Source: Lacipirellulaceae bacterium (GTDB lineage Bacteria; Planctomycetota; Planctomycetia; Pirellulales; Lacipirellulaceae). Taken from it: a DNA stretch of 64,000 bases. Shown piece after piece: positions 21,442-49,529 of this stretch. The stretch covers positions 828,244 to 892,243 of the forward strand of contig CBDDGV010000003.1 in NCBI GenBank assembly GCA_965228005.1, read 5' to 3'. Position 1 is the first letter of the stretch; every line of letters begins with the position of its first letter. The notes beneath the pieces are model-generated. The model was not told the DNA's origin and did not search any database. It saw only the letters and a program-made list of their open reading frames with translations. The translations under genes were made by a program, and so were the position numbers.

Positions 21442-21900
21442 TTGCTCACTCGTTTCCTCTGAGGGCTCCGCGCATGCAACTGGTACTCCGTGCCATTCCC
21501 GGCCTCCGTGCCGGACTACCTCAATCAGTCAAAGGAGTGCTGATTCGATCAATGCCCTTCAGTTCGCTACCACGCCCCAAGCGAGGAATTGGACTCAAAT
21601 CCTGGTCCGAATGACTTTCTCGACGCGGACGCATAATCAACGTAACAGGGGTGCGGTCCCCCGCACGCCTGTTTGCGATCTACAAACCGAATCAAACTTT
21701 ACGCCCGAATATCGACCCGATTTTGGGCAAGCTCAGGAAACTTTGCGTTCTATTTCTTTTGTTTCCACAATGGAAGCAATCGTGCGGTAGCAGATAGCCG
21801 GCAACTCGCCGCAGTCGTTCTCCTTTCGATTGCCCAGAGTGAGTCCAGCAGCCGTCTTTTCATTTGCCTCTCGTTCTCATCTCCAACTCGCAGGCACGCA

Positions 21901-22974
21901 ATGTCGATCCGCAAAGAAGAGAGCCACGCATCCGAGAGTTCCTCCGAGGGAGATTTTGCCGGGCGGCTCAGAAACTACTCTCGCATGGTGAGCGAGAAGC
22001 TCGACTTGAATCGCCAATCTGCTGCCAAAGTCGTCGGGATGTCGGCCGCGGCTTGTGCGGCACTCTCGGCCCACCAATCGGCTGAGGCGGCGATCCGCTA
22101 CAGCGGTCCGCTCAACCTCAACGCCGCGGTCTACACCAACTTCTCATTCCAAAACGCTTCGTTCAACATCGACGGGCTTGCCAACTTCGGGATCTCTGCA
22201 GCTCGTTTCTCGGCCTACTACCTCTACGGCTTGCAACAAGTCGGCTTCGGAACAACGGGCACGGTGAACAACACGAATGCCGCTGGCCCAAATGGTGAAG
22301 AGATCGTCTTCGCCCCCGGCCCCAATGGCGACAACCAGCCGGATAGGCTCGGTGCAGGAACGACGATCGATTCCAACTCGCCCTGGTTTGCGCCGGCCAT
22401 CAACGCGGGCAACATCAACAAGGCCGTGATCCAGGCGAACAACTACGCCCCCTATTCCTACTTTTCTGGGAACAACTGGCCGAACCCAGCCGCCGGATTC
22501 AACTACCCCAACTACGGCTACGGTTACTTCTACACCGCCACCGGCTTCGCGGGCATCCGCTTCGACACGGCCGGCGGAAACGCGAAGCATAACGGGTGGG
22601 TCCGCCTTCAAATCACTAACAACGGGACCGTTGGCGGGTTCACCCAGCGGTACCAGGTCGGCAGGATTGATGTCCTCGAATGGGCCTACGAGACAACCCC
22701 GGATGCTCCGATCGAAGCCGGCGCAGGCGTAGGGGCCGGAGATTTTGACGCCGACGGAGACGTGGACATTGCCGATCTCGCGCTCTGGCAGCGAGACGAC
22801 GGCTCGGCCGCCGGGCTGGAAGAGTGGCAGGTCAACCTCGGGCGTGTCGATACGCCTGTGCCGGCGATCTCGAGCGTGCCTGAGCCGGGATCGGCTGCAC
22901 TGCTGACCCTCGGTCTCTTGGCGACGGGGGCCCGCGGAGTCCGCAGGCAGCGGAAAATCAAAGAAGCAAAGTAG
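21901..22974 (+). CDS. PEP-CTERM protein (paralog A) with dockerin-like DxDxDG motif
   Basis: Start taken at MSIRKEESHASE. C-terminus GDFDADGDVDIADLALWQRDDGSAAG ... VPEPGSAALLTLGLLATGARGVRRQRK. Confidence 0.6.
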   Translation: MSIRKEESHASESSSEGDFAGRLRNYSRMVSEKLDLNRQSAAKVVGMSAAACAALSAHQSAEAAIRYSGPLNLNAAVYTNFSFQNASFNIDGLANFGISAARFSAYYLYGLQQVGFGTTGTVNNTNAAGPNGEEIVFAPGPNGDNQPDRLGAGTTIDSNSPWFAPAINAGNINKAVIQANNYAPYSYFSGNNWPNPAAGFNYPNYGYGYFYTATGFAGIRFDTAGGNAKHNGWVRLQITNNGTVGGFTQRYQVGRIDVLEWAYETTPDAPIEAGAGVGAGDFDADGDVDIADLALWQRDDGSAAGLEEWQVNLGRVDTPVPAISSVPEPGSAALLTLGLLATGARGVRRQRKIKEAK

Positions 22975-23105: not shown

Positions 23106-24002
23106 ATGCAAAGAACACCCGGGAATCCGACCTTCTCCGACCGCTTACAGAGTTACTCTCGGATGGTGACGACCAAGCTCGACGCCGGCCGACAAAAAGC
23201 GGTCCAGGCCACGGCGCTCACTGCGGCGGCGAGTGCGACGCTCTCGGCCCACCAAGCCGCCGAAGCCGCGATCGTTTATAGCGGCCCGGTGAACCTCACC
23301 GCCGCGGTCTACTCCGACTTCTCTTTCCAGAACGCCTCATTCAGCATCGACGGCCTAGCCAACTTCGGCATCTCGGCCGCCCGGTTCTCCGCCTACTACC
23401 TCTACGGCTTGCGGCAAGTCGGTTTCGGGACGACGGGTTCCGTCAACAACACCGGCGTCCCGGGGCCGAACGGTGAAGAGATCGTTTTCGCGCCGGGCGG
23501 GGGCGGCCAGAACCAACCCGACAAGCTCGGCGCTGGCACGACCATCGACTCGAACTCGCCCTGGTTCGCGCCCGCGATCAACGCGGGCAACGGCAACAAG
23601 GCCCTGATCGAGGCGAACAACTACGGTTCCGCCGCCGCCGGGAACAACTGGCCGAACCCGGCAGCCGGCTTCAACTACCCCGCCTACGGCTACGGCAACT
23701 TCTACACCGCCACGGGCTTCGCGGGCGTCCGCTTCGACACGGCCGGCGGCAACGCGAAGCACAACGGATGGGTGCGTCTGCGGATCACCAACAACGGCGT
23801 CGGCGGGACCTTTACCCAGCGTTACCAAGTCGGCAAGATCGACGTTCTCGACTGGGCGTACAATTCGATCCCCGACGCCCCGATCGCAGCCGGCCAGATC
23901 CCCGAGCCGTCGGCCGCCGCACTCGGCACGCTTGGCGCCTTGGCTCTCGGCGCCTCGAGCGTGAGAGCAATTGGTCGAAAGCGTCGGAGCAAAGCCGCTT
24001 GA
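23106..24002 (+). CDS. PEP-CTERM protein (paralog B of 21901..22974)
   Basis: N-terminal 180 aa are near-identical to paralog A (YSRMV..KLD...SAHQAAEAAI.YSGP.NL.AAVY). Ends IPEPSAAALGTLGALALGASSVRAIGRKRRSKAA. Confidence 0.6.
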   Translation: MQRTPGNPTFSDRLQSYSRMVTTKLDAGRQKAVQATALTAAASATLSAHQAAEAAIVYSGPVNLTAAVYSDFSFQNASFSIDGLANFGISAARFSAYYLYGLRQVGFGTTGSVNNTGVPGPNGEEIVFAPGGGGQNQPDKLGAGTTIDSNSPWFAPAINAGNGNKALIEANNYGSAAAGNNWPNPAAGFNYPAYGYGNFYTATGFAGVRFDTAGGNAKHNGWVRLRITNNGVGGTFTQRYQVGKIDVLDWAYNSIPDAPIAAGQIPEPSAAALGTLGALALGASSVRAIGRKRRSKAA

Positions 24003-27223: not shown

Positions 27224-29230
27224 ATGAAACGAGAGCGTCGGCTGCAGCCGCCCCGAGTCAAAACCGACCAGCTTAGGCAATGCCTGGTAGTCCCGGGTTC
27301 GTGGCCTTGTGAGGTGCTCCTGGCCGCTGTTCTGTTGCTCGGCGCCGGTTCCCACCAGTCGTCCGCCGACGTATTCACAAACGTCGCGGAAGCGACCAAC
27401 GACGGGTACGAGCTGATCTACACGCTGCCGATCCCCGATTCGGCTTCGTTCAGCTCCACCAGCGTCATCCCGTTCTTGGTAGACAACTCCGCCAGCTTCG
27501 CCAACACGCCGTTTGATCGCGTGGCTTACTACTTGGAACTAGCCGGCGGCCAAGGACTCACTTACGCGTACACCTCTATGGACGCCTTTTCGACCAACCT
27601 CAGCGATATCGGTTTGCCAGCCGATGGGCAGCTTTTCCAGCAGAACGTGTCGAACCTAAACGTCTTCTCTAACTCAACCTCGTTAACGACCGGCATCGGG
27701 ATTTCCACGGGAAACATCGAGTTCTGGAACACCAACTACGGCACCGCGAACAGCGCGGGTGTTCCCGGCGCGAACGACGGGACGTACGACTTTGGAGACA
27801 GCGTCTCCGGCAACGGGAGCTACTCGTCGTTCCAGGTGCACAACCACGGAGCCGGGGAGACGATCATCGCGTACAACCAGTGGGCCGGATTCAACCCGAA
27901 TGCGGACAGCGACCTGGGCATTGGGAACAGACCCGTCGGGAACCCCGATTGGACGTTCTCGCAGAGCGCCGGGTCGTACTCGGTCAAGAACCTGCAGGTC
28001 TTGATCAGACCGTCGGGCCTTTCGGTCGACTCTTCCCTGCAGCGCGCAATCTTCCAACGCAACTACCAGAACTCCGCGACGATCCCCCTCCAGGGCCAGG
28101 TGGACGCCTCGGCGGCCGTCTCCATTGAGGCCCGGGCCGTCCCGCGCGCCGGCTACTCGGGGGTCGCGACCGGATGGGTCACGGTCGATTCCAGCCTTCA
28201 GTCCGGCTCATGGGACGGGGCGCTTGATCTGCTGGCGGGTTGGTACGACATCGAAGTCCGGTCGATCGATGGGGGCGGCAACGTCGTTGACCAGCAGTCC
28301 GTCAATCGCGTCGGCGTTGGCGAAGTCTTCGTGGTCGCCGGGCAGTCCAACTCCGCGAACTACGGCAACCCGACGCTCTCCGCGCAGGACGACCGCGTCT
28401 CTGCGTTCGATCTAACGAACTGGCAGAAGGCCAACGACCCCATGCCAGTAGCCGACGGCTCAGGTGGTTCTCCTTGGCCGGCGCTCGGCGATATGCTCAC
28501 CGAGGAGTGGGACGTTCCCGTAGGGTTCGTGTCGGTCGGGTGGGGCGGAACCTCCGCCGCGCAATGGGAGCCCGGGGCCACCGGGCCGGACGCCGAGCCG
28601 CTCTACAACCGACTTCAAGACGCGCTAACCGCCCTCGGCCCCGACGGCGCCCGAGCCGTACTTTGGCACCAAGGTGAGGCTGACAACGCCTTCAACACGT
28701 CTGCGGTTGCATACGAAGCTTCGCTCGAGACGATCATCGCACAGTCGCGTGTCGACGCGGGTTACGACGTGCCGTGGGGAATCGCGCTGGCCTCATTCAT
28801 TTCACTGGGCAACCCCAACGACCCCAATATCACCGCCGCCCAGCAGAAGGTCGTCGACGACGACCCGCTAAACTTCCTCGGAGCCGCGACAGACGACCTT
28901 GGCGGCCCGGCATGGCGGTGGGACGGCATCCACTTCAACGAGCCCGGTCTCCGCGAACACGCGCAGCGCTGGTTCGACCAACTCCTAGCGTCACTTGAGT
29001 TCCCCACTCCGACCCCCGGCGACTACGACGGCGACGGAGACACGGACATCGCAGACCTCATGAGATGGCAAAGAAACGACGGATCAGCCGCAGGCCTGGA
29101 TGCCTGGCGGACCGGAGCCGGGGCGGGCGGCACATCAACGCAATCCGCCTCCGCCGTACCAGAACCACTCAGTATTTGGGGCATTGTCGGCGCCGCCCTT
29201 TGCCTGGCACATGACAGGCGGCGCCGCTAA
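27224..29230 (+). CDS. SASA-type carbohydrate esterase with PEP-CTERM anchor
   Basis: VFVVAGQSNSANYG and LWHQGEADN motifs. C-terminus GDYDGDGDTDIADLMRWQRNDGSAAG ... VPEPLSIWGIVGAALCLAHDRRRR. Confidence 0.65.
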   Translation: MKRERRLQPPRVKTDQLRQCLVVPGSWPCEVLLAAVLLLGAGSHQSSADVFTNVAEATNDGYELIYTLPIPDSASFSSTSVIPFLVDNSASFANTPFDRVAYYLELAGGQGLTYAYTSMDAFSTNLSDIGLPADGQLFQQNVSNLNVFSNSTSLTTGIGISTGNIEFWNTNYGTANSAGVPGANDGTYDFGDSVSGNGSYSSFQVHNHGAGETIIAYNQWAGFNPNADSDLGIGNRPVGNPDWTFSQSAGSYSVKNLQVLIRPSGLSVDSSLQRAIFQRNYQNSATIPLQGQVDASAAVSIEARAVPRAGYSGVATGWVTVDSSLQSGSWDGALDLLAGWYDIEVRSIDGGGNVVDQQSVNRVGVGEVFVVAGQSNSANYGNPTLSAQDDRVSAFDLTNWQKANDPMPVADGSGGSPWPALGDMLTEEWDVPVGFVSVGWGGTSAAQWEPGATGPDAEPLYNRLQDALTALGPDGARAVLWHQGEADNAFNTSAVAYEASLETIIAQSRVDAGYDVPWGIALASFISLGNPNDPNITAAQQKVVDDDPLNFLGAATDDLGGPAWRWDGIHFNEPGLREHAQRWFDQLLASLEFPTPTPGDYDGDGDTDIADLMRWQRNDGSAAGLDAWRTGAGAGGTSTQSASAVPEPLSIWGIVGAALCLAHDRRRR

Positions 29231-31447: not shown

Positions 31448-32596
31448 CTACAGCAGGTTGACCACACGGTCGGCGAGGCCCTTCTCGCCGAGCACGACGT
31501 TGAGCTTGCCGCTCGTGGCGACCTTCTCCAGGACCTCAAGTTCCCGGAGACGCATCAGCGTCGTGTTGTCGGCGAGCAGGCGGGCCGTGTTGGCCTGCGA
31601 CCGCATCGCGGCCGTCTCCTCGCGTCGGGCGATCAGGTTCGCCTCGGCGGCCTTCTTGGCCTCCGTCACTCGGTTGAGCAGGACCTTCATGTCGCCCGGC
31701 AGGATCACGTCCTTGACGCCCACCGAAACGACTTCCAGACCCAGCTCACCCGACCGGCGACGGACCGACTCGGCGAACTCGTCCGTGACGGCGTCCTTGT
31801 CCGTCAGGAACGCGTCCAGGTCGCGCGTCGCCACGACCGCACGCAGAGCCAGCTGCGCCTCGCGGTACAGCGACTGCTTCGCGCCGTCGGCCACGGTGAC
31901 CGCCTGCCGCGCGTCGACCACGCGGTAGGTAACCACGGCGTTCATCCGCAGCGTGACCTTGTCGGCGGTCATGATTTCCTGACCGGCGACATCGAGGGTC
32001 TGCTCACGGAGGTCGACCTCGACCACCTTCGCGTCGGCTGTGCGCCGCCAGTACGCGTACTGGCCCGGCGGCAGCGTCTCGACGAAGCTGCCGTCGTAGA
32101 ACACGACGCCGACCGAGTTCCGCGCAACCGTGCAGATGTCGAGCACCTGCGAGGCGTACGGGCTGCCGAGCACACGGTTGAGGTCCTTGTGACGGAAGCG
32201 GACCTCGCCGGCGTCGACGACCTCGACACGCACGTCCTTCTCGCCGGTCCAGTACGCGTACAGGCCCGGCGGCAGGATGTGGCTGAAGCGGCCCTCGATC
32301 CAGACCAGGCCGCGGTCGTTGTCCTTGAGGTCCACGACCACCGCCTCGCCTTCCAGGGCGCCGCTCTTCACGATCGCCTCGAGTTCGTCGTGCGCCAGCC
32401 AAGGGTCGCGACGCGACACGACATCGACCCGCACCTTCCACGACGGGGCCTTCAGCCAGTGCCGCCCGCGGGTGAGCAGGCCCTGGAACTCGCCGTCTCG
32501 GAAGTAGAGGCCTACTTCGTAGCTACGAATCTTGACTCGCTTGTAAAACGTCATGGGAGGCCTCCTTTCTGTGGCCAAGGGGTTGGGTGCACTCAA
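31448..32596 (-). CDS. SPFH/band-7 (HflC/stomatin-like) family protein
   Basis: 382 aa with an SPFH-like central region. N-terminal repeated GxYAYW motifs. The 3' 400 nt are duplicated at 9983-10433. Confidence 0.7.
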   Translation of the reverse strand: MSAPNPLATERRPPMTFYKRVKIRSYEVGLYFRDGEFQGLLTRGRHWLKAPSWKVRVDVVSRRDPWLAHDELEAIVKSGALEGEAVVVDLKDNDRGLVWIEGRFSHILPPGLYAYWTGEKDVRVEVVDAGEVRFRHKDLNRVLGSPYASQVLDICTVARNSVGVVFYDGSFVETLPPGQYAYWRRTADAKVVEVDLREQTLDVAGQEIMTADKVTLRMNAVVTYRVVDARQAVTVADGAKQSLYREAQLALRAVVATRDLDAFLTDKDAVTDEFAESVRRRSGELGLEVVSVGVKDVILPGDMKVLLNRVTEAKKAAEANLIARREETAAMRSQANTARLLADNTTLMRLRELEVLEKVATSGKLNVVLGEKGLADRVVNLL

Positions 32597-32996: not shown

Positions 32997-33071
32997 TGGT
33001 GGGGGGTGCGGGAGTCGAACCCGCGACAGCCAGATTAACAGTCTGGTGCTCTACCACTGAGCTAACCTGGT
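32997..33071 (-). tRNA. tRNA-Asn(GTT)-like with encoded CCA; acceptor strands not complementary, likely a pseudogene
   Basis: Perfect T-arm gcggg/cccgc, D-arm gctc..gagc and AC loop ctgttaa. The 5' acceptor accaggt cannot pair with 3' acccccc. Confidence 0.4.
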
Positions 33072-33193
33072 GGCGATCTGACGTTGGCCATCCTAGAACC
33101 CATGCACGGAACACGCCCGCCCAACCGAACCAAGCGGGGACGGACGCGCCGCTGGCCCGGCACGTCAAAACCTTGCTTGTAGATCGTTCTAAG

Positions 33194-33265
33194 AGACGCC
33201 GGTGGGAGTCGAACCCACTTCAAACCGGGTTGCAGCCGGTTGCCTCGCCGTCGGGCTCCAGCGTC
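33194..33265 (-). tRNA. tRNA-Cys(GCA)
   Basis: AC arm accgg-ctgcaac-ccggt. U73 discriminator. 7-bp acceptor with one G-U pair. 3-bp D-stem. Confidence 0.6.
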
Positions 33266-33288
33266 TTCGTTGTCACTGAAAGTGTCAG

Positions 33289-33360
33289 CAGCCTGTCCAG
33301 GAGTTGAACCTGATCCTCGACCTTCGCAGGGTCGCGTGCGATCCGCCACACCCACAGGCT
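33289..33360 (-). tRNA. tRNA-Arg(GCG)
   Basis: AC arm cgacc-ctgcgaa-ggtcg. Acceptor agcctgt/acaggct perfect. Confidence 0.6.
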
Positions 33361-33364
33361 GTAG

Positions 33365-33437
33365 TACCTCGCCAGGGAATCGAACCCCGTCTTGCAGATT
33401 CGAAGTCTGCCGTGCTCGTCCGTCACACTCGCAAGGC
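33365..33437 (-). tRNA. tRNA-Arg(TCG)
   Basis: AC arm gcaga-cttcgaa-tctgc. D-stem gtgt/gcac. Confidence 0.6.
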
Positions 33438-33469
33438 GTCGTAGCCCGTCCAGGAATCGAGGGGCTGGT

Positions 33470-33530
33470 CAACTCTACCGCGTGCCGCCTTCATCCTCCC
33501 TCGCCGGTCGGCGGCGTCACTTGCTTCCAA
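33470..33530. repeat. Conserved ~60-nt element, copy A (second copy at 37262-37316)
   Basis: ctaccgcgtgYcgcct...tcctccctNNccggtcggcggcgWcacttgctYcc is shared by both loci. Contains the hairpin cgccg-gtcgg-cggcg. Not foldable as a tRNA. Confidence 0.5.
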
Positions 33531-33580
33531 CAGCTTCGGAAGCTGACATGCGCTCCGGCACACCCACGGGCCGTACTCAG

Positions 33581-33652
33581 CATCTCGACCTGGGGTCGAA
33601 CCAGGACCTGGGCTTTAGGAGAGCCCCGTGCGGTCCATTACACTATCGAGAT
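33581..33652 (-). tRNA. tRNA-Arg(CCT)
   Basis: AC arm gggct-ctcctaa-agccc. Acceptor perfect. Confidence 0.6.
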
Positions 33653-33656
33653 GTGG

Positions 33657-33730
33657 GGCCGACGGCTGGATTCGCACCAGCATGATCCGGTTTACAAGAC
33701 CGGCGCCTTTCTAGGTCGAGCCACGTCGGC
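33657..33730 (-). tRNA. tRNA-Thr(TGT)
   Basis: AC arm ccggt-cttgtaa-accgg. T-loop variant tgcgaat. Confidence 0.55.
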
Positions 33731-33734
33731 ACAG

Positions 33735-33803
33735 CAGGAGTGCAAGGAATCGAACCCTGCTCGGCGGTTTTGGAGGCCGCTTGCTTCCCAGAAGCACACT
33801 CCT
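33735..33803 (-). tRNA. tRNA-Trp(CCA) with an unusually short D-arm
   Basis: AC loop ctccaaa. Acceptor aggagtg/cactcct perfect. D region is only 16 nt. Confidence 0.5.
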
Positions 33804-33813
33804 GTAGTTCGAG

Positions 33814-33887
33814 GGCATCCGGAGGGATTCGAACCCTCACTTCCTGCTTCACAGGCAGGCGTGCGTACCGTGTACACCTCGGACACC
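33814..33887 (-). tRNA. tRNA-His(GTG) with encoded G-1
   Basis: AC arm cctgc-ctgtgaa-gcagg. Extra 5' G opposite C73, as expected for bacterial tRNA-His. Confidence 0.65.
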
Positions 33888-33921
33888 ATAAGTTGGGCCG
33901 CCGTCGCCGACGGCCCAACAG

Positions 33922-34722
33922 TCAGTCGATGAACGCCACGTGCCGCATGGCCGCCGAGTCGGTCTCGGTGTTCAACAGCACCTGACGCCACTCCTTCAGC
34001 ACGATCGTCTTGTGATCGGCGTGCCGTACCTTGCCGCGTACGAAGACCAGAGGGTTCCGCTTCTGGGTGACCCAGTGCAGGTTCCGCATCTTCGGCCGAC
34101 GGCTGATCAGCTGACGGTACTGCTCGACGGTCAAGCCGTTCGGACGCGCGTTGCTGACGTAGACGGTCTCGCCGCCCTGACGCACCAACTCGTCGACCAT
34201 GTGCGGCTTGCCGCCGCCGCGGATCAGCGGCTCGTTCCGCAGGATCAGCCTCTCGTCGACCCGCACCCACCGTGGGACCGGGACGAAGAACCACTCACCC
34301 TGGCGGACGAACGCCTCGTTGCGACGGCGGTTCCGCTTCCTCCGCTTGACCTTCAGCTCGTCCTGCCGACGCCGGACCGGCAGCGGCTTCAACGCCTCCA
34401 TCGCCGTAATGACATTGGAGGCGCCCGCCCGCTCCGGCACCGCGGCGACGAACCAGTGACGCTCGTCGTGGCCGCATAGGAACTTGTGCTTCCCGTCCGA
34501 ATCACGGGACATCAGCAGCAAGTGCCGCTCCCGCGGCCGCGTATCGACGACCTGCAGCTCCCGCTCACGACCGGGCAGGACCGAAACGCCGAAGAACTCG
34601 CCCTCGGCGTCCGACCCGATGTCGATCGATACGCTGCTCTGCAGCCGCCTCGATACGCTAACGTCAACCTTGGCACGCGCGCCGATCTTGGCGAAGTGCC
34701 GCTCAATCAAGTGCGCGTTCAT
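33922..34722 (-). CDS. hypothetical protein embedded in the tRNA array (267 aa, basic K/R-rich centre)
   Basis: ORF on the same strand as the tRNAs, with no overlap of neighbouring tRNAs when started at MNAHLIERHF. Contains FLCGHDERHWFVAAVPE and KVKRRKRNRRRNEAF. No family recognised. Confidence 0.5.
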   Translation of the reverse strand: MNAHLIERHFAKIGARAKVDVSVSRRLQSSVSIDIGSDAEGEFFGVSVLPGRERELQVVDTRPRERHLLLMSRDSDGKHKFLCGHDERHWFVAAVPERAGASNVITAMEALKPLPVRRRQDELKVKRRKRNRRRNEAFVRQGEWFFVPVPRWVRVDERLILRNEPLIRGGGKPHMVDELVRQGGETVYVSNARPNGLTVEQYRQLISRRPKMRNLHWVTQKRNPLVFVRGKVRHADHKTIVLKEWRQVLLNTETDSAAMRHVAFID

Positions 34723-34757
34723 AGGAACGTCCTCCAGGAAACAGAAAACAAAACCAG

Positions 34758-34842
34758 CGGAAGGAGAGGGAGTCGAACCCTCAAGGCAGTGAAGCTCCAC
34801 CGGCTTCCAACCGGGTCCCGTCGCCCATCGGGTAGCCCTTCC
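34758..34842 (-). tRNA. tRNA-Ser(GGA), type II
   Basis: 85 nt. AC loop ttggaag. Long variable arm. G73. Confidence 0.55.
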
Positions 34843-34850
34843 GTACCCAG

Positions 34851-34940
34851 TAGCCCGACCAGGATTCGAACCTGGCCCCGTCACTCAGCAAACGCGGCTC
34901 GTTAGAAGCGAGGGATGATCGTCCGTTTCACCATCGAGCC
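34851..34940 (-). tRNA. type II (long variable arm) tRNA with apparent anticodon TCT; identity ambiguous
   Basis: 90 nt, A73, 21-nt variable arm. AC loop cttctaa closed by a 4-bp stem plus a C-C mismatch. Confidence 0.4.
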
Positions 34941-34963
34941 AAACTCTTTTTTGCAAACGCAAG

Positions 34964-35053
34964 CGGAAGGCATGGGATTCGAACCCACATGCCGCGAGTG
35001 AGGCGGCTCCGCATTAGCAGTGCGGCCCGGCGAGCCGTATCCGGCTGCCTTCC
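34964..35053 (-). tRNA. tRNA-Ser(GCT), type II
   Basis: 90 nt. AC arm ccgca-ctgctaa-tgcgg. G73. Acceptor perfect. Confidence 0.6.
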
Positions 35054-35061
35054 GTGTTTAG

Positions 35062-35150
35062 TGGACCCACTGGGAATCGAACCCACCGCGTTCCCCTAAG
35101 GACGTAGGCCGACCTGCCGAGCCGGTGTCGTCCCGTTGGACCATGAGCCC
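35062..35150 (-). tRNA. type II tRNA-like gene, anticodon unresolved (Leu-like D-arm)
   Basis: 89 nt. Acceptor pairs with G-U wobbles. D-arm resembles tRNA-Leu. AC loop tcggcag has no U33. Confidence 0.35.
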
Positions 35151-35161
35151 TCGTGTGGAGT

Positions 35162-35234
35162 GGACCGGAAGGGAATCGAACCCTTCGCACCGACTTTGCA
35201 AGAGTCAGTCGCCCCCTTGGAACATGCCAGCCCA
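35162..35234 (-). tRNA. tRNA-Ala(TGC)
   Basis: G3:U70 in the acceptor. AC loop cttgcaa. A73. D-arm non-canonical. Confidence 0.55.
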
Positions 35235-35243
35235 TTCTCTGAG

Positions 35244-35314
35244 AGGTCCGTCCGGGAATTGAACCCGGTCCTCGTCCTTACCACGGACGCGTGCGGCCGA
35301 AACACTTACAGACC
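35244..35314 (-). tRNA. tRNA-Thr(GGT)
   Basis: AC arm cgtcc-gtggtaa-ggacg. Confidence 0.55.
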
Positions 35315-35320
35315 ATCGAG

Positions 35321-35393
35321 TGATCCCGGATGGAATCGAACCATCTATCTCCTGGGTGTCATCCAGGCGTCGTAGCCGTTGGACCACGGGATC
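35321..35393 (-). tRNA. tRNA-Val(GAC)
   Basis: AC arm cctgg-atgacac-ccagg. Acceptor perfect. Confidence 0.55.
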
Positions 35394-35398
35394 GTCAG

Positions 35399-35474
35399 TG
35401 ACCAGGGTGGGAGTCGAACCCACAAAATCACCAGGCTCTCGACCTGGTCGCTTTGCCAGTTTGCGTACCCAATC
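35399..35474 (-). tRNA. tRNA with Leu-type anticodon GAG on a short-variable-arm scaffold (atypical)
   Basis: AC arm ccagg-tcgagag-cctgg. 7-nt variable region. D-arm ta-cgc-aaactggcaa-agcg. A73. Confidence 0.35.
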
Positions 35475-35482
35475 ATGGGAAG

Positions 35483-35550
35483 TAGCGGGTCCGGGAGTCG
35501 CACCCGACGGTCCAGGCTTATGAGGCCCGGCTGAGCCTGGCTCACCCGCA
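35483..35550 (-). tRNA. tRNA-Met(CAT)-like with 1:72 mismatch and aberrant D-arm
   Basis: AC arm cgggc-ctcataa-gcctg. U1-U72 unpaired. D region is only ~14 nt. Confidence 0.35.
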
Positions 35551-35557
35551 TCAGCAG

Positions 35558-35658
35558 TAGCCAAGGGGCCGCGTATTCAGGGAAACGGGGCGAACTCCCA
35601 CGCCACAAGTGGCACGACATTCTGAGTGTCGCGTGTCTACCTGTTCCACCACTTGGCT
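35558..35658 (-). tRNA. tRNA-Leu(CAG)-like, type II, atypical T region
   Basis: AC arm cgaca-ctcagaa-tgtcg. Variable hairpin gccac-aa-gtggc. Leu-like D-arm tg-gtg-gaacaggtaga-cac. Acceptor agccaag/cttggct. Confidence 0.4.
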
Positions 35659-35665
35659 GTATCAG

Positions 35666-35736
35666 TAGCCCGTACGGGAATCGAACCCGTGCCGCGAGTT
35701 TGAGGGACTCGCATCCTGCCGCTAGACCAACGGGCC
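35666..35736 (-). tRNA. tRNA-Glu(CTC)
   Basis: Glu-like D-arm tg-gtc-tagcggcagga. AC loop ccctcaa with C33. Confidence 0.5.
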
Positions 35737-35749
35737 TCTCTCGTGTCAG

Positions 35750-35831
35750 TGCGCCGGGCAGGAGTTGAACCTGCACAGCCCGAAGGCGGGTGGGTTACAG
35801 CCACTGGGGCTCGCCGATGCCCAGCCGACGC
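35750..35831 (-). tRNA. tRNA-Tyr(GTA), type II
   Basis: 82 nt. AC loop ctgtaac. D-stem gggc/gccc. Long variable region. Confidence 0.55.
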
Positions 35832-35846
35832 ATGAGTTGTTGCCAG

Positions 35847-35923
35847 TAGCACGGGTGGGAGTCGAACCCACAAACTGTCACGAAGGTTTGAGCTTCGTCG
35901 CTTTGCCGTTTGCGTACCGTGCC
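35847..35923 (-). tRNA. tRNA with Leu-type anticodon CAA on a short-variable-arm scaffold (atypical)
   Basis: AC arm cgaag-ctcaaac-cttcg. 9-nt variable region. A73. Confidence 0.4.
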
Positions 35924-35931
35924 GGATCGAG

Positions 35932-36006
35932 CGTCCCCGGCGGGATTTGAACCCGCGTCCTCCACCGTGACAGGGTGGCGAGCACTCCAGGCTGCTCCAC
36001 GAGGAC
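35932..36006 (-). tRNA. tRNA-Asp(GTC)
   Basis: AC arm ccacc-ctgtcac-ggtgg. G73. D-stem gagc/gctc. Confidence 0.6.
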
Positions 36007-36014
36007 CTGTTGAG

Positions 36015-36088
36015 TGGCTCAGGTGGGATTCGAACCCACAGCATCCTCGGGTTTAAGCCAAGGTGGTCTGCCGATTGCCTACCGAGCC
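36015..36088 (-). tRNA. tRNA with Leu-type anticodon TAA on a 74-nt type I scaffold (atypical)
   Basis: AC arm cttgg-cttaaac-ccgag. 6-nt variable region. A73. Confidence 0.4.
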
Positions 36089-36109
36089 GCCCGTTCACTT
36101 GCTTGTGAG

Positions 36110-36182
36110 TACCCAAAGCAGGATTCGAACCTGCAAACACCTGATCCTAAGTCAGGCCGCTCAGCCGTTGGCGTATCTGGGC
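36110..36182 (-). tRNA. tRNA with Leu-type anticodon TAG on a 73-nt type I scaffold (atypical)
   Basis: AC arm cctga-cttagga-tcagg. 5-nt variable region. A73. Confidence 0.4.
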
Positions 36183-36194
36183 ATCGCATCGAAG

Positions 36195-36267
36195 TAGTCC
36201 TGGGTGGACTCGAACCACCGATCTTCTTCTTGTAAGGAAGCCGCCTTTGCCGCTAGGCCACAGGACT
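36195..36267 (-). tRNA. tRNA-Val(TAC)
   Basis: AC loop cttacaa. Acceptor agtcctg/caggact perfect. D-stem gcct/aggc. Confidence 0.55.
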
Positions 36268-36366
36268 GAAAACCACAGTGCTTTAGCAAAAGTTGACCTA
36301 CTCGCATTTGCTTGCTAACCTTTGCTGGGCGCAGCGGAACAGTACTTGGAAACAGCGGTCGAGCCA

Positions 36367-37044
36367 ATGAAACGCTACCTACTTCTGTTCATATTCACCT
36401 CTCAATCAGTTTGTTTTTCTAGCAGTCTGATACTTGACCAATCGTTTGAATGGGAATCACCAGCACACTATGGTGGTTTCGGTTCAGCCTCCATGGGAAA
36501 AAGGCAAGCCCAAACCTTTACAGTTGGAGTTACAGGATCATTGCGTCGCATTGAGATTGCTGTTCGTCCGGAAGGCGAGCGTGAAGAAATGAACACAGAT
36601 CAAATTGAAATCTTTCTTGTGCAAACGGTGTCTGGATTACCAAACCTAAACCCGGCTAGTATGTTGGCATCAAGTTCAGAAACCATTCCGACTCCGGGTT
36701 CAGTACTCGTCCAGGGTGGGGAAAACAATAGGTTCCAGGACTTCCATTGGGCACAGTTCGACCTACCTCCAACAAGTGTGGTGTCTGGCGAACTCCTTGC
36801 AATCGTCTTGTCTACCGAAATCAATCATGGGTATCATTGGGCAGCAAGTTTTCCCGGATCATATTTATACGGTCGTGGGCTAAGAGGCTCTTCGGAAGGT
36901 ATATATGCTGAACCTCCGATTAACTTTCAGCATCGCGACTGGTTGTTTCGAACCTATGTCGTTCCGATTCCAGAGCCATCAGGAGCGCTATTGCTGGCTT
37001 TGGGAACAATTACTTTATGCGCCATCAGGAAGCGCCGAAGTTGA
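36367..37044 (+). CDS. PEP-CTERM protein, low-GC (foreign-looking) gene inside the tRNA array
   Basis: MKRYLLLFIFTSQSVCFSS signal. Ends VPIPEPSGALLLALGTITLCAIRKRRS. Coding sequence is AT-rich relative to the ~65% GC surroundings. Opposite strand to the tRNAs. Confidence 0.55.
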   Translation: MKRYLLLFIFTSQSVCFSSSLILDQSFEWESPAHYGGFGSASMGKRQAQTFTVGVTGSLRRIEIAVRPEGEREEMNTDQIEIFLVQTVSGLPNLNPASMLASSSETIPTPGSVLVQGGENNRFQDFHWAQFDLPPTSVVSGELLAIVLSTEINHGYHWAASFPGSYLYGRGLRGSSEGIYAEPPINFQHRDWLFRTYVVPIPEPSGALLLALGTITLCAIRKRRS

Positions 37045-37060
37045 TTCGATTTCTAGGGAA

Positions 37061-37122
37061 CTGCGGGGGTTGGAATCGAACCAATCCCAGCGCGCCCCGT
37101 CCTACCGTTGAACGACCCCGCA
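37061..37122 (-). tRNA. truncated tRNA-like gene lacking an anticodon arm (pseudogene)
   Basis: Perfect 7-bp acceptor tgcgggg/ccccgca, D-arm and T-arm present. Only 12 nt sit in place of anticodon arm plus variable region. Confidence 0.4.
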
Positions 37123-37140
37123 TAAGTTATCTCCCTCTAG

Positions 37141-37215
37141 TTCCGGGGGTAGGAATCGAACCTACGGACTCCTGGTTCAAAGCCAGGCAACACTACCAGC
37201 AGCGTCGACCCCGGA
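37141..37215 (-). tRNA. tRNA-Gln(TTG)
   Basis: AC arm cctgg-ctttgaa-ccagg. Acceptor perfect. Confidence 0.55.
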
Positions 37216-37261
37216 ATGCTTCCATCAAGAGAGTGCCCTGCGGGAGTCGGCCGCTCCACGA

Positions 37262-37316
37262 AGGACTACCGCGTGTCGCCTCGCTCCTCCCTACCGGTCG
37301 GCGGCGACACTTGCTC
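37262..37316. repeat. Conserved ~60-nt element, copy B (see 33470-33530)
   Basis: ctaccgcgtgtcgcctcgctcctccctaccggtcggcggcgacacttgctccc. Confidence 0.5.
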
Positions 37317-37425
37317 CCGCCTCGCCTGGTTGGAAGCCCGGAGCCTCTGCCGCTCGGCCAACGGAAGCAACCGAGCACGGCTGACTCAACGTCAGCCGAG
37401 CGCAGGGCGGTAGCTCTCAGAAAAG

Positions 37426-37513
37426 CGGAAGGAGTGAGAGTCGAACTCACAAGGCGCGCGTGGCGCTCGACTGCTTTCGAGGCAGCTGCCATCGCCCATT
37501 GGCTTGCCCTTCC
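37426..37513 (-). tRNA. type II tRNA-like gene with Ser(GGA)-like acceptor and abnormal (6- or 8-nt) anticodon loop
   Basis: Acceptor ggaagga/cccttcc identical to the tRNA-Ser(GGA) at 34758. Anticodon hairpin ctcga-aagcag-tcgag. Confidence 0.35.
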
Positions 37514-37521
37514 GTTTGGAG

Positions 37522-37593
37522 CACCGGTGGGAGGACTCGAACCTCCACTCGTCGGCTTAACAGGCCGCCGCCTTACCGTTTGGCCACACCGGT
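37522..37593 (-). tRNA. tRNA-Asn(GTT)
   Basis: AC loop ctgttaa. Acceptor accggtg/caccggt perfect. Confidence 0.55.
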
Positions 37594-37602
37594 TCATGTG
37601 AG

Positions 37603-37676
37603 TCAGGACGGCTGGATTCGAACCAGCGGTCTCGTGCGCCCGAGGCACGCGGAATACCAGGCTTTCCCACGCCCTG
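37603..37676 (-). tRNA. tRNA-Pro(CGG)
   Basis: AC arm cgtgc-ctcgggc-gcacg. D-stem ggaa/ttcc. Confidence 0.55.
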
Positions 37677-37683
37677 AATCGAA

Positions 37684-37754
37684 TGCGCCCAGCCGGAATC
37701 GAACCGACACACCCTGCATGGCGAGCAGGAAGGCTGCCACTACATCATGGGCGC
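37684..37754 (-). tRNA. tRNA-Gly(GCC)? (C33 in loop)
   Basis: AC arm cctgc-tcgccat-gcagg. Acceptor gcgccca/tgggcgc perfect. Confidence 0.4.
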
Positions 37755-37807
37755 AAAACAATGCGAATTAAGTTGTCAAAGAACGCGGAACGACCGGCCG
37801 TTCCGAG

Positions 37808-37879
37808 AGCACCGGGAGGGATTCGAACCCACGTAGCCGCTGTACGAGAGCGGAGTCTTTGCCTCTAGACGACCAGTGC
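37808..37879 (-). tRNA. tRNA-Thr(CGT)
   Basis: AC arm ccgct-ctcgtac-agcgg. Confidence 0.55.
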
Positions 37880-37889
37880 TTGTTGTCAG

Positions 37890-37962
37890 TGGGACCAGAG
37901 GGACTCGAACCCTCACCCGCCTGGGTAAGAACCAGGGATGCTGCCGCTAACACCTCAGTCCC
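37890..37962 (-). tRNA. tRNA-Lys(CTT)
   Basis: AC arm cctgg-ttcttac-ccagg. Confidence 0.55.
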
Positions 37963-37977
37963 AAAACCGTCTCGCAG

Positions 37978-38050
37978 TTGGCGCGGGAGGAATTGAACCC
38001 CCGACCCACGACTTATAAGGTCGTCGCTCTCACCACTGAGCTACGCGCCA
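37978..38050 (-). tRNA. tRNA(TAT), AUA-decoding tRNA-Ile2-like
   Basis: Fully canonical cloverleaf. Acceptor tggcgcg/cgcgcca. D-arm ta-gctc-agtggtga-gagc. AC arm acgac-cttataa-gtcgt with U33 and A37. Confidence 0.6.
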
Positions 38051-38069
38051 TGAAAGGGGGCGCAAGCAG

Positions 38070-38141
38070 TGGGGCCGGAGGGATTCGAACCCTCACCGTG
38101 CGGATTAAAAGTCCGTCGTGCAGCCGTTACACCACAGCCCC
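38070..38141 (-). tRNA. tRNA-Lys(TTT)
   Basis: AC loop cttttaa. Acceptor pairs with one G-U. Confidence 0.55.
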
Positions 38142-38223
38142 GAGGTCTGGGTTGGGCGTATCGGTTTGCGTCGGCGGACAGTCGACATCGTGTTGCTCCT
38201 AGTGGTTCGCGAAGTGCCGTGAG

Positions 38224-38295
38224 TGGTAGTCCTGGGAATCGAACTCAGCGCCGCGGTCTTATCAGGACCACTTGGGCAACCAGCCCTCGACTACC
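38224..38295 (-). tRNA. tRNA-Ile(GAT) (array copy, distinct from the chromosomal copy at 49397)
   Basis: AC loop ctgataa. Acceptor ggtagtc/gactacc perfect. Confidence 0.55.
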
Positions 38296-38299
38296 GTGA

Positions 38300-38392
38300 G
38301 TCGGGCGCCTCGGGGTCGAACCGCCGTGTCCCTTAGCAAACGGGGCTCCTGCTCCCAAAAGCAGGCGTGCTCCCATCTGCACCTCCGCCCGG
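38300..38392 (-). tRNA. type II tRNA-like gene with an 8-nt anticodon loop ttttggga (Pro UGG-like plus one U)
   Basis: AC arm cctgc-ttttggga-gcagg. Long variable hairpin. Weak T-stem. Confidence 0.3.
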
Positions 38393-38401
38393 TGTTTTCA
38401 G

Positions 38402-38475
38402 TCAGAACGGTCGGATTCGAACCGACGGCCTCTTGGCCCCCAGCCAAGCGCGATACCTAGCTTCGCCACGTTCTG
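38402..38475 (-). tRNA. tRNA-Pro(GGG)
   Basis: AC arm cttgg-ctggggg-ccaag. Acceptor cagaacg/cgttctg perfect. Confidence 0.55.
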
Positions 38476-38484
38476 ATTGGTCAG

Positions 38485-38556
38485 CACCCCGTGAGGGAAT
38501 CGAACCCTCATCTGCGGATTGAAAGCCCGCCATCCTCGCCGTTAGACCAACGGGGC
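38485..38556 (-). tRNA. tRNA-Glu(TTC)
   Basis: AC loop ctttcaa. Glu-like D-arm tg-gtc-taacggcgagg. Confidence 0.55.
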
Positions 38557-38610
38557 GTGTCGTGTCTCCTTGTGCGCGCACCGGGTGCGCACGGTGTCTC
38601 TGAAACCCAG

Positions 38611-38682
38611 TGGGCCGGGAGGCGCTCGAATCCTCGTCTGCGGTTCTTCAGACCGCCGCTATACCGTCTCAGCTACCAGCCC
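38611..38682 (-). tRNA. tRNA-Phe(GAA)
   Basis: AC arm gcggt-ctgaaga-accgc. D-stem gctg/tagc. Confidence 0.55.
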
Positions 38683-38721: not shown

Positions 38722-38759
38722 AAAGAAAAAGGCCCGGCGTCTGTCTGACACCGGGCCTT
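38722..38759 (-). terminator. intrinsic terminator-like hairpin for minus-strand transcripts arriving from the NUDIX gene
   Basis: ggcccgg...ccgggcc stem followed, on the minus strand, by TTTTTCT. Confidence 0.35.
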
Positions 38760-39054: not shown

Positions 39055-39483
39055 TCAGCCGCCGCAGTCGGTCTGCAGTGCGCCGAGAAGTGCGTCCAGA
39101 ATCTCGGCCAACGACGGAGCCAAGAGTTGTCTGGCTTCTTCGAAGCCGACGACCAGGCGCTCTCGAGTTGCTTGCTCCTCCCACTCCTCGAGCAGGCTCT
39201 CCACGGCGAGAGGGTAGATGTCGATGCGTGCGAGGCCGCCCCATTTCTCCTGCTCGTAAGTCCCGAGTGCCTCTCCGGTGATCCGTCCGACGACGCCCGC
39301 CTCTTCCTGGGCTTCTTTCACCGCGGTTGATTCCGGCGTCTCCCCGGGGTCGATCACCCCCTTCGGGAAAATCCACTTCCCCGATGACCTGGACGTGATG
39401 AGGACAATCTCCAGCCCAACGCCGTCCTGCAGGTACGGCAGACCCCCGGCCTGACGGAACAAGAAGTCCGGTTTCTTCGCCAA
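39055..39483 (-). CDS. NUDIX hydrolase
   Basis: Nudix box GKWIFPKGVIDPGETPESTAVKEAQEEAGV. Confidence 0.75.
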   Translation of the reverse strand: MAKKPDFLFRQAGGLPYLQDGVGLEIVLITSRSSGKWIFPKGVIDPGETPESTAVKEAQEEAGVVGRITGEALGTYEQEKWGGLARIDIYPLAVESLLEEWEEQATRERLVVGFEEARQLLAPSLAEILDALLGALQTDCGG

Positions 39484-49396: not shown

Positions 49397-49470
49397 GGGC
49401 GTGTAGCTCAGTTGGTTAGAGCGCAGCCCTGATAAGGCTGAGGTCCCAAGTTCGAATCTTGGCACGCCCA
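49397..49470 (+). tRNA. tRNA-Ile(GAT), chromosomal copy
   Basis: gggcgtg-ta-gctcagttggttagagc-g-cagcc-ctgataa-ggctg-aggtc-ccaag-ttcgaat-cttgg-cacgccc-a. Confidence 0.85.
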
Positions 49471-49529
49471 CTCCTGTTTTCTGTCTCCTGTCTCCCGTCT
49501 CCTGGGGTCCGAAGCTCCCTCCGATTCGA

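Follow-up and report, generated by a model that had tools for sequence, protein, structure and literature searches.

A tRNA-Ile(UAU) gene within a degenerate tRNA gene cluster on a Pirellulales-type planctomycete chromosome

Introduction

Degenerate tRNA gene clusters that include a canonical tRNA with the anticodon UAU have been described in planctomycetes by Kim et al. (2016, PLoS One, PMC4807772), who attributed the UAU tRNA to horizontal transfer. It was proposed in that study that the tRNA aids the translation of recently acquired genes, and AUA was found to be commoner in genomic islands; neither lysidine nor TilS occurs in its supplementary text. Here we analyse a gene of this kind, a tRNA-Ile(UAU) gene located within a ~5.8-kb tRNA array, at positions 37978..38050 (minus strand) of a 64-kb stretch of contig CBDDGV010000003.1; the term window refers throughout to this whole stretch. 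On the basis of sequence comparisons, we consider it likely that the gene is functional and is the sole structurally canonical member of a horizontally mobile degenerate cluster typical of Pirellulales-type planctomycetes.

The locus fits the description of Kim et al. feature by feature, and we therefore regard it as a further instance of the published phenomenon: the presence of a UAU tRNA in such an array is an already-published planctomycete feature, of which the window provides a new example. Common to both are a planctomycete chromosome, a single high-scoring UAU tRNA among many low-scoring tRNAs, signs of horizontal mobility, and the rarity of AUA (2.4-5.9% of Ile codons there versus 1.9% here). 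The window differs in the higher GC content of its genome (~65%), in the size of its array (~37 genes versus 10-28), in that no AUA-rich island adjoins the array in the local data, and in the evidence for conservation, which here comes from covariation among orthologues and there from score alone.

Encoded UAU anticodons are also known from other bacteria, Taniguchi et al. (2013, PMC3575796) having listed nine tilS-less species with tRNA-Ile(UAU), plus a few that have both systems. The tRNA-Ile2(UAU) of Mycoplasma mobile (PMC3575796, PMC1635315) reads AUA without lysidine, as is predicted for the tRNA described here; in M. mobile, however, tilS and tRNA-Ile(CAU) have been lost and the isoleucyl-tRNA synthetase (IleRS; Arg865) and ribosome are co-adapted, whereas the window tRNA belongs, as an accessory gene, to a mobile array whose host probably retains the canonical TilS system. 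A closer parallel in this respect is offered by bacteria that carry tilS together with tRNA-Ile(TAT), namely Cyanothece PCC 7424, Ferrimonas balearica, Lactobacillus casei and L. plantarum (Taniguchi 2013, PMC3575796), in which AUA decoding via LAU and UAU is likewise presumed to be redundant, although these belong to other phyla and the study is silent on whether their copies lie in arrays.

The cluster itself resembles described tRNA arrays, which are defined as at least 20 tRNA genes at a density of at least 2 per kb (Tran 2016, PMC4758250). In the array literature (PMC8421152; PMC4758250; Morgado and Vicente 2018, PMC5966550), arrays consist of dozens of packed, same-strand and often divergent tRNAs that represent nearly all amino acids, with a patchy distribution and links to mobile elements, and Planctomycetes are among the phyla with L-arrays (Santamaria-Gomez 2021, PMC8421152).

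Structure of the tRNA-Ile(UAU) gene

ARAGORN called a minus-strand tRNA-Ile(tat) at 37977-38050 in the 64-kb window, and Infernal matched the Rfam tRNA model (RF00005, gathering score 29 bits) to 37978-38050(-) at 71.2 bits (E = 1.5e-13 for the window), covering model positions 1-71 of 71 with zero non-canonical pairs flagged. This was the best Rfam score within the array, and the gene was present as a single copy among the ARAGORN calls for the window. It is 73 nt in length, folds as a canonical cloverleaf, and reads on the minus strand UGGCGCG-UA-GCUC-AGUGGUGA-GAGC-G-ACGAC-CUUAUAA-GUCGU-GGGUC-GGGGG-UUCAAUU-CCUCC-CGCGCCA-A. The acceptor stem of 7 bp (UGGCGCG/CGCGCCA) is followed by U8 and A9, a D arm with a 4-bp stem and the loop AGUGGUGA, a 5-bp anticodon stem (ACGAC/GUCGU) closing the 7-nt loop CUUAUAA (U33, U34-A35-U36, A37, A38), a variable loop of 5 nt, and a 5-bp T stem (GGGGG/CCUCC, with one G-U pair) with the loop UUCAAUU. 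The discriminator is A73, and CCA is not encoded. No intron is present in the gene, which in this differs from eukaryotic cytoplasmic tRNA-Ile(UAU), where the anticodon is pseudouridylated on an intron-containing precursor; the anticodon and codon are the same in both.

The canonical cloverleaf, UAU anticodon, coordinates and anatomy had been put forward in a prediction made earlier from the letters of the stretch (the original prediction), and all were borne out by ARAGORN and the Rfam match; location on the minus strand is a detail that it lacked. Two circumstances that might have overturned the assignment were also addressed. No alternative fold placing a different triplet at positions 34-36 was found, the thermodynamic fold (ViennaRNA) reproducing the same anticodon hairpin and so leaving no other register for these positions, and an error of base-calling in the anticodon is excluded because CUUAUAA is read in five distinct orthologues from independent assemblies.

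Conservation among related arrays

Related arrays were located via contigs encoding homologues of ORF266, a 266-aa protein whose gene lies within the array. The window array is collinear with those of L123 and L206. In L123, a 5.66-Mb contig with 34 tRNAs, the order is that of the window: Phe-Glu-Pro-Lys(UUU)-Ile(UAU)-Lys(CUU)-Thr(CGU)-Gly(GCC)-...-ORF-His-Trp-Thr-Arg-Arg-Arg-Cys-Band_7. The pair Lys(UUU)-Ile(UAU) is kept in L206 (a 9.1-Mb contig, 29 tRNAs), in the thinned version of the array found on the JGI and Logan metagenome contigs L124/L125 (21 tRNAs), and in L209/L210 from Pirellulaceae metagenome-assembled genomes (MAGs; 16 tRNAs). Ile(UAU) is directly followed by Lys(CUU) in the window, L123 and L206, and by Thr(CGU) in L124.

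A gapless covariation alignment was built from the five distinct Ile(UAU) sequences of the window and the orthologous arrays. The anticodon loop CUUAUAA, A73, C4-G69 and the D loop are invariant in all five, while changes on both sides, and hence compensatory, occur in 6 of the 21 stem pairs (1-72, 6-67, 27-43, 30-40, 50-64 and 51-63). Overall, 98% of alignment cells are paired, the covariation score was reached by none of 500 shuffles, and sliding the 3' partners as a control abolished the pairing. In the D stem of the L124 copy there is an A12-A23 mismatch. Judged by the invariant loop and the compensatory stem changes, the structure and anticodon of the UAU tRNA are under purifying selection, the pattern of a tRNA that selection keeps functional.

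Conservation extends to the rest of the array. Between the window and L123, array tRNAs are ~92% identical (median), versus 72-78% for the blocks containing ORF266 and the Band_7 gene, on which basis the odd structures of the 'degenerate' tRNAs seem to be maintained and not decaying.

Isoleucine identity and AUA decoding

The closest relative of the UAU tRNA in the window (73% identity) is a stand-alone, housekeeping-type tRNA-Ile(GAU) at 49397..49471 on the plus strand (Rfam 77 bits). The two have in common acceptor positions 2-5 and 7 (GGCG.G), the D stem and A73, and isoleucine identity of the UAU tRNA appears to be supported by this likeness. The identity set of Escherichia coli IleRS, reportedly set out by Nureki and colleagues in 1994, is said to comprise A73, C4-G69, U12-A23, C29-G41, A37 and A38. 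Planctomycete rules may differ from this E. coli set. The window tRNA has A73, C4-G69, U12-A23, A37 and A38; A73, C4-G69, A37 and A38 are found in five of five orthologues, and U12-A23 in four of five.

Across the 36 predicted genes of the window, AUA accounts for 12 of 15,851 codons (0.76 per thousand, 1.9% of Ile codons) and AUG for 291. No match to the TilS or IleRS family was obtained among the Pfam-scanned open reading frames (ORFs), which comprise most long ORFs of the window, and a literature search on IleRS type or TilS in Planctomycetes returned nothing direct. A tRNA-Ile(CAT) was lacking only in M. mobile among 234 bacterial genomes (Silva et al. 2006, PMC1635315), and kIle tRNAs of Planctomycetes are mentioned in the TFAM paper, from which we infer that planctomycetes keep the TilS route. 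The UAU tRNA is thus most likely redundant with, or supplementary to, TilS-dependent AUA decoding.

Under this interpretation, the UAU tRNA would be co-transcribed with its neighbours as a minus-strand polycistronic precursor, as suggested by the single strand and by spacers of only 14-18 nt that separate it from the Lys tRNA on either side. RNase P and a 3' endonuclease would excise it, CCA would be added post-transcriptionally since none is encoded, and the host IleRS would charge it with isoleucine. The rare AUA codon could then be read by direct U34-A pairing, without the TilS lysidine that the CAU-type tRNA-Ile2 needs, and the tRNA would serve as a supplementary or redundant AUA decoder beside the canonical TilS system. 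As proposed by Kim et al., AT-richer acquired genes might be helped in their expression.

With respect to rarity, the view in the original prediction that an encoded UAU tRNA is unusual holds across bacteria, where such tRNAs are uncommon (Taniguchi 2013), but not within planctomycetes, where they recur (Kim 2016, and four further arrays). Its suggestion that AUA usage be contrasted between island genes and the core genome found no footing here: there is no protein-coding 'island' around the gene, the flanks being ordinary planctomycete DNA with AUA at 1.9% of Ile codons throughout. The further idea in that prediction, that an array-borne copy could alter AUA/AUG decoding, is speculative. The window data therefore neither favour nor contradict the idea of a helper for acquired genes.

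Composition of the tRNA array

The array (an L-array or 'degenerate tRNA gene cluster', 33193..38682, minus strand) comprises ~37 genes as delimited by ARAGORN, Rfam, and collinearity with L123 and L206. ARAGORN called 36 of these, all on one strand, the outermost being Cys(gca) at 33193 and Phe(gaa) at 38682. That the UAU tRNA is an array-borne copy, as had been stated before, is confirmed by its position as one of the ~37 same-strand genes, and with 36 ARAGORN genes at ~6.6 per kb the cluster falls well within the definition of an array given by Tran. Spacers are mostly 3-25 nt, interrupted by three protein-coding or unassigned gaps. Twenty-five of the 36 called genes reach the Rfam gathering score and 11 fall below it; odd D arms are frequent in the raw sequences, and the UAU tRNA stands as the single structurally canonical member of a mostly low-scoring array. 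A second isoleucine gene, tRNA-Ile(GAU) at 38223..38295 (-), is aberrant, with an odd D arm, and was detected by ARAGORN only, as it does not reach the gathering score of Rfam.

No canonical CAU tRNA was called by ARAGORN in the array or the window. A CAU tRNA-like gene was instead recognised by reading the sequence at 35483..35551 (-), where Rfam gives sub-threshold tRNA-like matches; it was missed both by ARAGORN and at the Rfam threshold, and its loop CUCAUAA (CTCATAA) occurs only once in the window. The gene is ~69 nt long; its D arm is reduced, its T loop reads UGCGACU, and U1 faces U72 as a mismatch. Conservation extends to L123, L124, L128, L135 and L206, the acceptor, anticodon and T stems all showing compensatory substitutions, and the gene may be a Met, an initiator-like or an Ile2 tRNA.

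Anticodons beginning with A34 are absent from the called array tRNAs, four-codon boxes being served by G34, U34 or C34. In particular, Arg(GCG) at 33288-33360 (-) stands in place of the near-universal bacterial Arg(ACG), and recurs in L123, L124, L128, L135, L206 and L209; a few related arrays use ACG.

Several further elements were observed in or beside the array. A 92-nt gene at 38300-38391 (-), labelled 'tRNA-??? (ttgg)' by ARAGORN, is orthologous to the Pro(UGG) genes of L123 and L124. Its anticodon loop has 8 nt, and 18 nt are inserted ahead of its T stem; damage to a Pro(UGG) copy is the probable explanation, a four-base anticodon being formally possible. At 35575-35658 (-) lies the remnant of a type II tRNA resembling Leu(CAG), with an Rfam score of 16 bits, and Leu(CAG) is called at the corresponding position of L124, L127 and L128. 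A tRNA-Asn(GUU)-like remnant at 33005..33067 (-), at the downstream end of the array, has a canonical body and an unpaired acceptor stem (Rfam 57.3 bits over model positions 5-66 only, with no ARAGORN call). It may be the remnant of an integration site; around the array, no integration-site repeats were found beyond tRNA T-arm similarity, and no direct repeat matches the Asn remnant. A strong terminator-like hairpin of 13 bp with a U-rich tail (38729..38759, minus strand; a consensus match only) lies just upstream of the first array tRNA, between the array and a NUDIX gene. A scan for sigma-70 promoters gave matches no commoner than in shuffled sequence.

The embedded protein, mobility and distant relatives

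The gene for ORF266 (33922..34722, minus strand) encodes a product identical to database protein P0001, for which no known family or fold was matched. More than 7,400 homologues exist, named examples being from Novipirellula, Rhodopirellula, Rubripirellula and Pirellulaceae MAGs, and the family accompanies tRNA arrays across metagenomes: in 43 of 88 loci encoding a homologue, same-strand tRNAs lie within 400 bp. The close homologues in L122 and L208 have no tRNAs nearby. The arrays of Mycobacterium avium contain a conserved HNH endonuclease, whereas the window array has ORF266 and an SPFH protein instead; an HNH gene is present as well in the related array L209.

Flanks of the array vary from genome to genome, and the module has evidently moved between genomic sites. 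L206 is flanked by an integrase, an excisionase-like HTH protein and a DnaB-type helicase, L124 by a Prim-Pol primase, and L123 by IS66 and IS3 transposases; in the window the flanking genes are ordinary.

Among viral contigs, the first 120 matches to a pattern with either C or T at position 34 comprised 117 CAU and 3 UAU tRNAs, by which the D arm, variable loop and T loop of the UAU tRNA conform to the body plan of CAU-type Ile2/Met tRNAs. With T34 fixed, such a tRNA was found on 50 IMG/VR contigs. The closest is on L226 (IMGVR_UViG_3300014205_000206), an 84-kb viral contig whose Ile(UAU) shares the acceptor stem of the window tRNA and is 85% identical to it; its array of at least 21 tRNAs is directly downstream of genes for RtcB tRNA ligase, PRPP synthetase and NAMPT. 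These matches are compatible with phage-borne arrays as a vehicle.

In more distant arrays, UAU tRNAs of 91-96 nt were observed (L156:10888-10978, L167:8683-8778, L171:13924-14016 and L194:13130-13223), each with a long variable arm containing a conserved GCGCCAGAUUAGCGCG hairpin. This class II shape is unexpected for a tRNA-Ile, and these tRNAs may have a different identity (compare allo-tRNAs, PMC5389517).

Weighing of the proposed role and its alternatives

A number of observations weigh against a simple role as a functional, AUA-reading tRNA-Ile. Pair 29-41 of the UAU tRNA is G29-C41 and not the C29-G41 of the E. coli set. Local demand for AUA is tiny, at 12 in 15,851 codons, and mobile-module genes in L206 and L124 are not clearly AUA-enriched, their share of 4-6% of Ile codons being similar to that of other neighbouring genes in the same contigs. 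How well a UAU tRNA is charged depends on which residue IleRS has at the position of E. coli W905, and a bacterial-type IleRS with Trp at this wobble-recognition site charges UAU tRNAs poorly (Taniguchi 2013, PMC3575796). Finally, the UAU tRNA is no more conserved than its 'degenerate' neighbours; selection thus seems to act on the array as a whole, and this is left unexplained by the idea of an AUA helper alone.

One alternative, which we regard as possible, if tentative, is compatible with supplementary AUA decoding: the UAU tRNA may be part of a spare, self-sufficient decoding set. The array as a whole would then be mobile and would act as a back-up when translation is under stress, or as a counter-defence against anticodon nucleases. 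UAU would free AUA decoding from the host TilS, and Arg(GCG) would avoid the A-to-I editing of Arg(ACG). The restriction to G34, U34 and C34 anticodons is in keeping with such a set, as are the choice of Arg(GCG) over ACG and the replacement of the standard tRNA-Ile2(CAU) by Ile(UAU), the sole CAU gene of the array being the non-canonical element at 35483-35551. Conservation of the non-canonical tRNAs above that of the flanking DNA (~92% versus 72-78%) points in the same direction, and so does viral contig L226, where a similar array with an 85%-identical Ile(UAU) is found near RtcB, PRPP synthetase and NAMPT. L-arrays aid survival of Anabaena under translational stress (PMC8421152), and arrays have been discussed as anti-defence elements (PMC12803027). 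However, PADLOC recognised no defence or anti-defence protein in the window module, and related arrays L139, L156 and L171 contain Arg(ACG) and Met(CAU), such that a 'modification-free' logic is not universal. In its strongest form, which we think rather unlikely, the array would be a selectively maintained mobile module of ~35 non-canonical conserved tRNAs, ORF266 and the SPFH protein that acts as an autonomous decoding kit. If this were true, Ile(UAU) and Arg(GCG) would make the array independent of TilS and TadA, the two anticodon-editing enzymes on which decoding in bacteria otherwise relies, and the kit would be deployed under stress or against tRNA-targeting defence.

It is improbable that the UAU tRNA is the sole AUA decoder, tilS and tRNA-Ile2(CAU) having been lost as in M. 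mobile. The lack of a called canonical CAU tRNA in the array or window would agree with such a loss, as would the report that UAU is the only anticodon exclusive to degenerate clusters (Kim 2016, PMC4807772), but tRNA finders label tRNA-Ile2(CAU) as Met, and the exclusivity statement is therefore silent on this tRNA. Both the survey of Silva et al. (2006), with M. mobile as the only one of 234 genomes without tRNA-Ile(CAT), and the planctomycete kIle tRNAs of the TFAM paper argue against the loss. Moreover, relatives L122 and L208 keep an ORF266 homologue but lack the array, so that AUA must be readable without it.

More improbable still is the notion of a non-functional relic, an acquired tRNA gene drifting in a decaying cluster. 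Eleven neighbours below the Rfam threshold, the 18-nt insertion in the Pro(UGG) orthologue, the tRNA-Asn remnant and the A12-A23 mismatch of the L124 copy would all suit a relic; against it stand the six compensated stem pairs and the invariant anticodon loop over five lineages, together with the top covariance-model score in the array.

The least probable alternative is a recoding tRNA that alters the meaning of AUA/AUG through non-Ile charging or significant AUG reading, for although an unmodified UAU anticodon reads AUG besides AUA on E. coli ribosomes (Taniguchi 2013, PMC3575796) and the long-variable-arm UAU tRNAs of L156, L167, L171 and L194 perhaps have another identity, the window tRNA belongs to class I, its acceptor and D stems resemble those of tRNA-Ile, it carries A73, and it is conserved despite a local AUG:AUA ratio of 24:1, at which appreciable AUG misreading would be costly.

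Genomic neighbourhood

By its sequence, the chromosome is that of a Pirellulales-type planctomycete, as indicated by two DUF1559 proteins with an N-terminal methylation motif (N_methyl) and PEP-CTERM proteins (Pfam), by glycoside hydrolases, and by the Pirellulaceae homologues of ORF266. Other proteins encoded in the window include GH95, a rhamnosidase, SASA esterases, and ExbBD with TPR proteins. A mycobacterial or actinophage array, suggested by GC content, was rejected on two grounds: the flanking proteins are of planctomycete type, and when the array was compared by megablast with collections of phages and plasmids, the outcome was a 65-nt tRNA-Asp match or nothing. Nor is the DNA that of a phage or plasmid.

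On the downstream side, the array is followed by an SPFH/Band_7 gene (31448..32596, minus strand; Pfam Band_7 at 1.3e-29), which occurs after the array also in L123, L124 and L206 and lies in a block with 72% identity in the alignment to L123. A canonical tRNA-Val(CAC) and the NUDIX gene (39055-39483) are located immediately upstream of the array; for the latter, the collinear array of L123 has no counterpart. Inside the array, on the opposite strand, is a PEP-CTERM ORF (36322..37044, plus strand; TIGR02595 PEP_CTERM match) that falls in a gap of the collinear alignment and has no counterpart in the L123 array; its GC content at third codon positions (GC3) is 0.42 versus ~0.85 for its neighbours, and it contains 3 of the 12 AUA codons of the window. 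An 85-nt tRNA-Ala(ggc) called by ARAGORN at 28529-28613 (-) is most likely a false positive, and is treated as such because it lies inside a SASA-esterase ORF (27224-29230) without Rfam support. Elsewhere in the window, two neighbouring blocks (255-300 nt) recur after ~1.17 kb with an identity of 78-82% (22045-22722 and 23223-23894, plus strand), which indicates a tandem paralogous duplication involving the PEP-CTERM gene at 21673-22974 and its neighbour at 23106-24002.

Significance

With the gene described here, well supported by covariation, the small number of bacteria with an encoded tRNA-Ile(UAU) grows by one, which in itself is of modest significance. The wider value lies in the array, in which odd tRNAs are better conserved than nearby coding DNA and with which the large ORF266 family co-travels; together, the conservation of the array and its travelling protein family suggest a function still to be found. 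Within the Pirellulales, tRNA-Ile(UAU) emerges as belonging to the conserved core of a mobile tRNA array. Planctomycetes may consequently offer a natural setting in which to study how the lysidine and UAU routes of AUA decoding coexist, a 'transition state' that was postulated by Taniguchi et al. (2013, PMC3575796) and a reading that was not considered by Kim et al. (2016).
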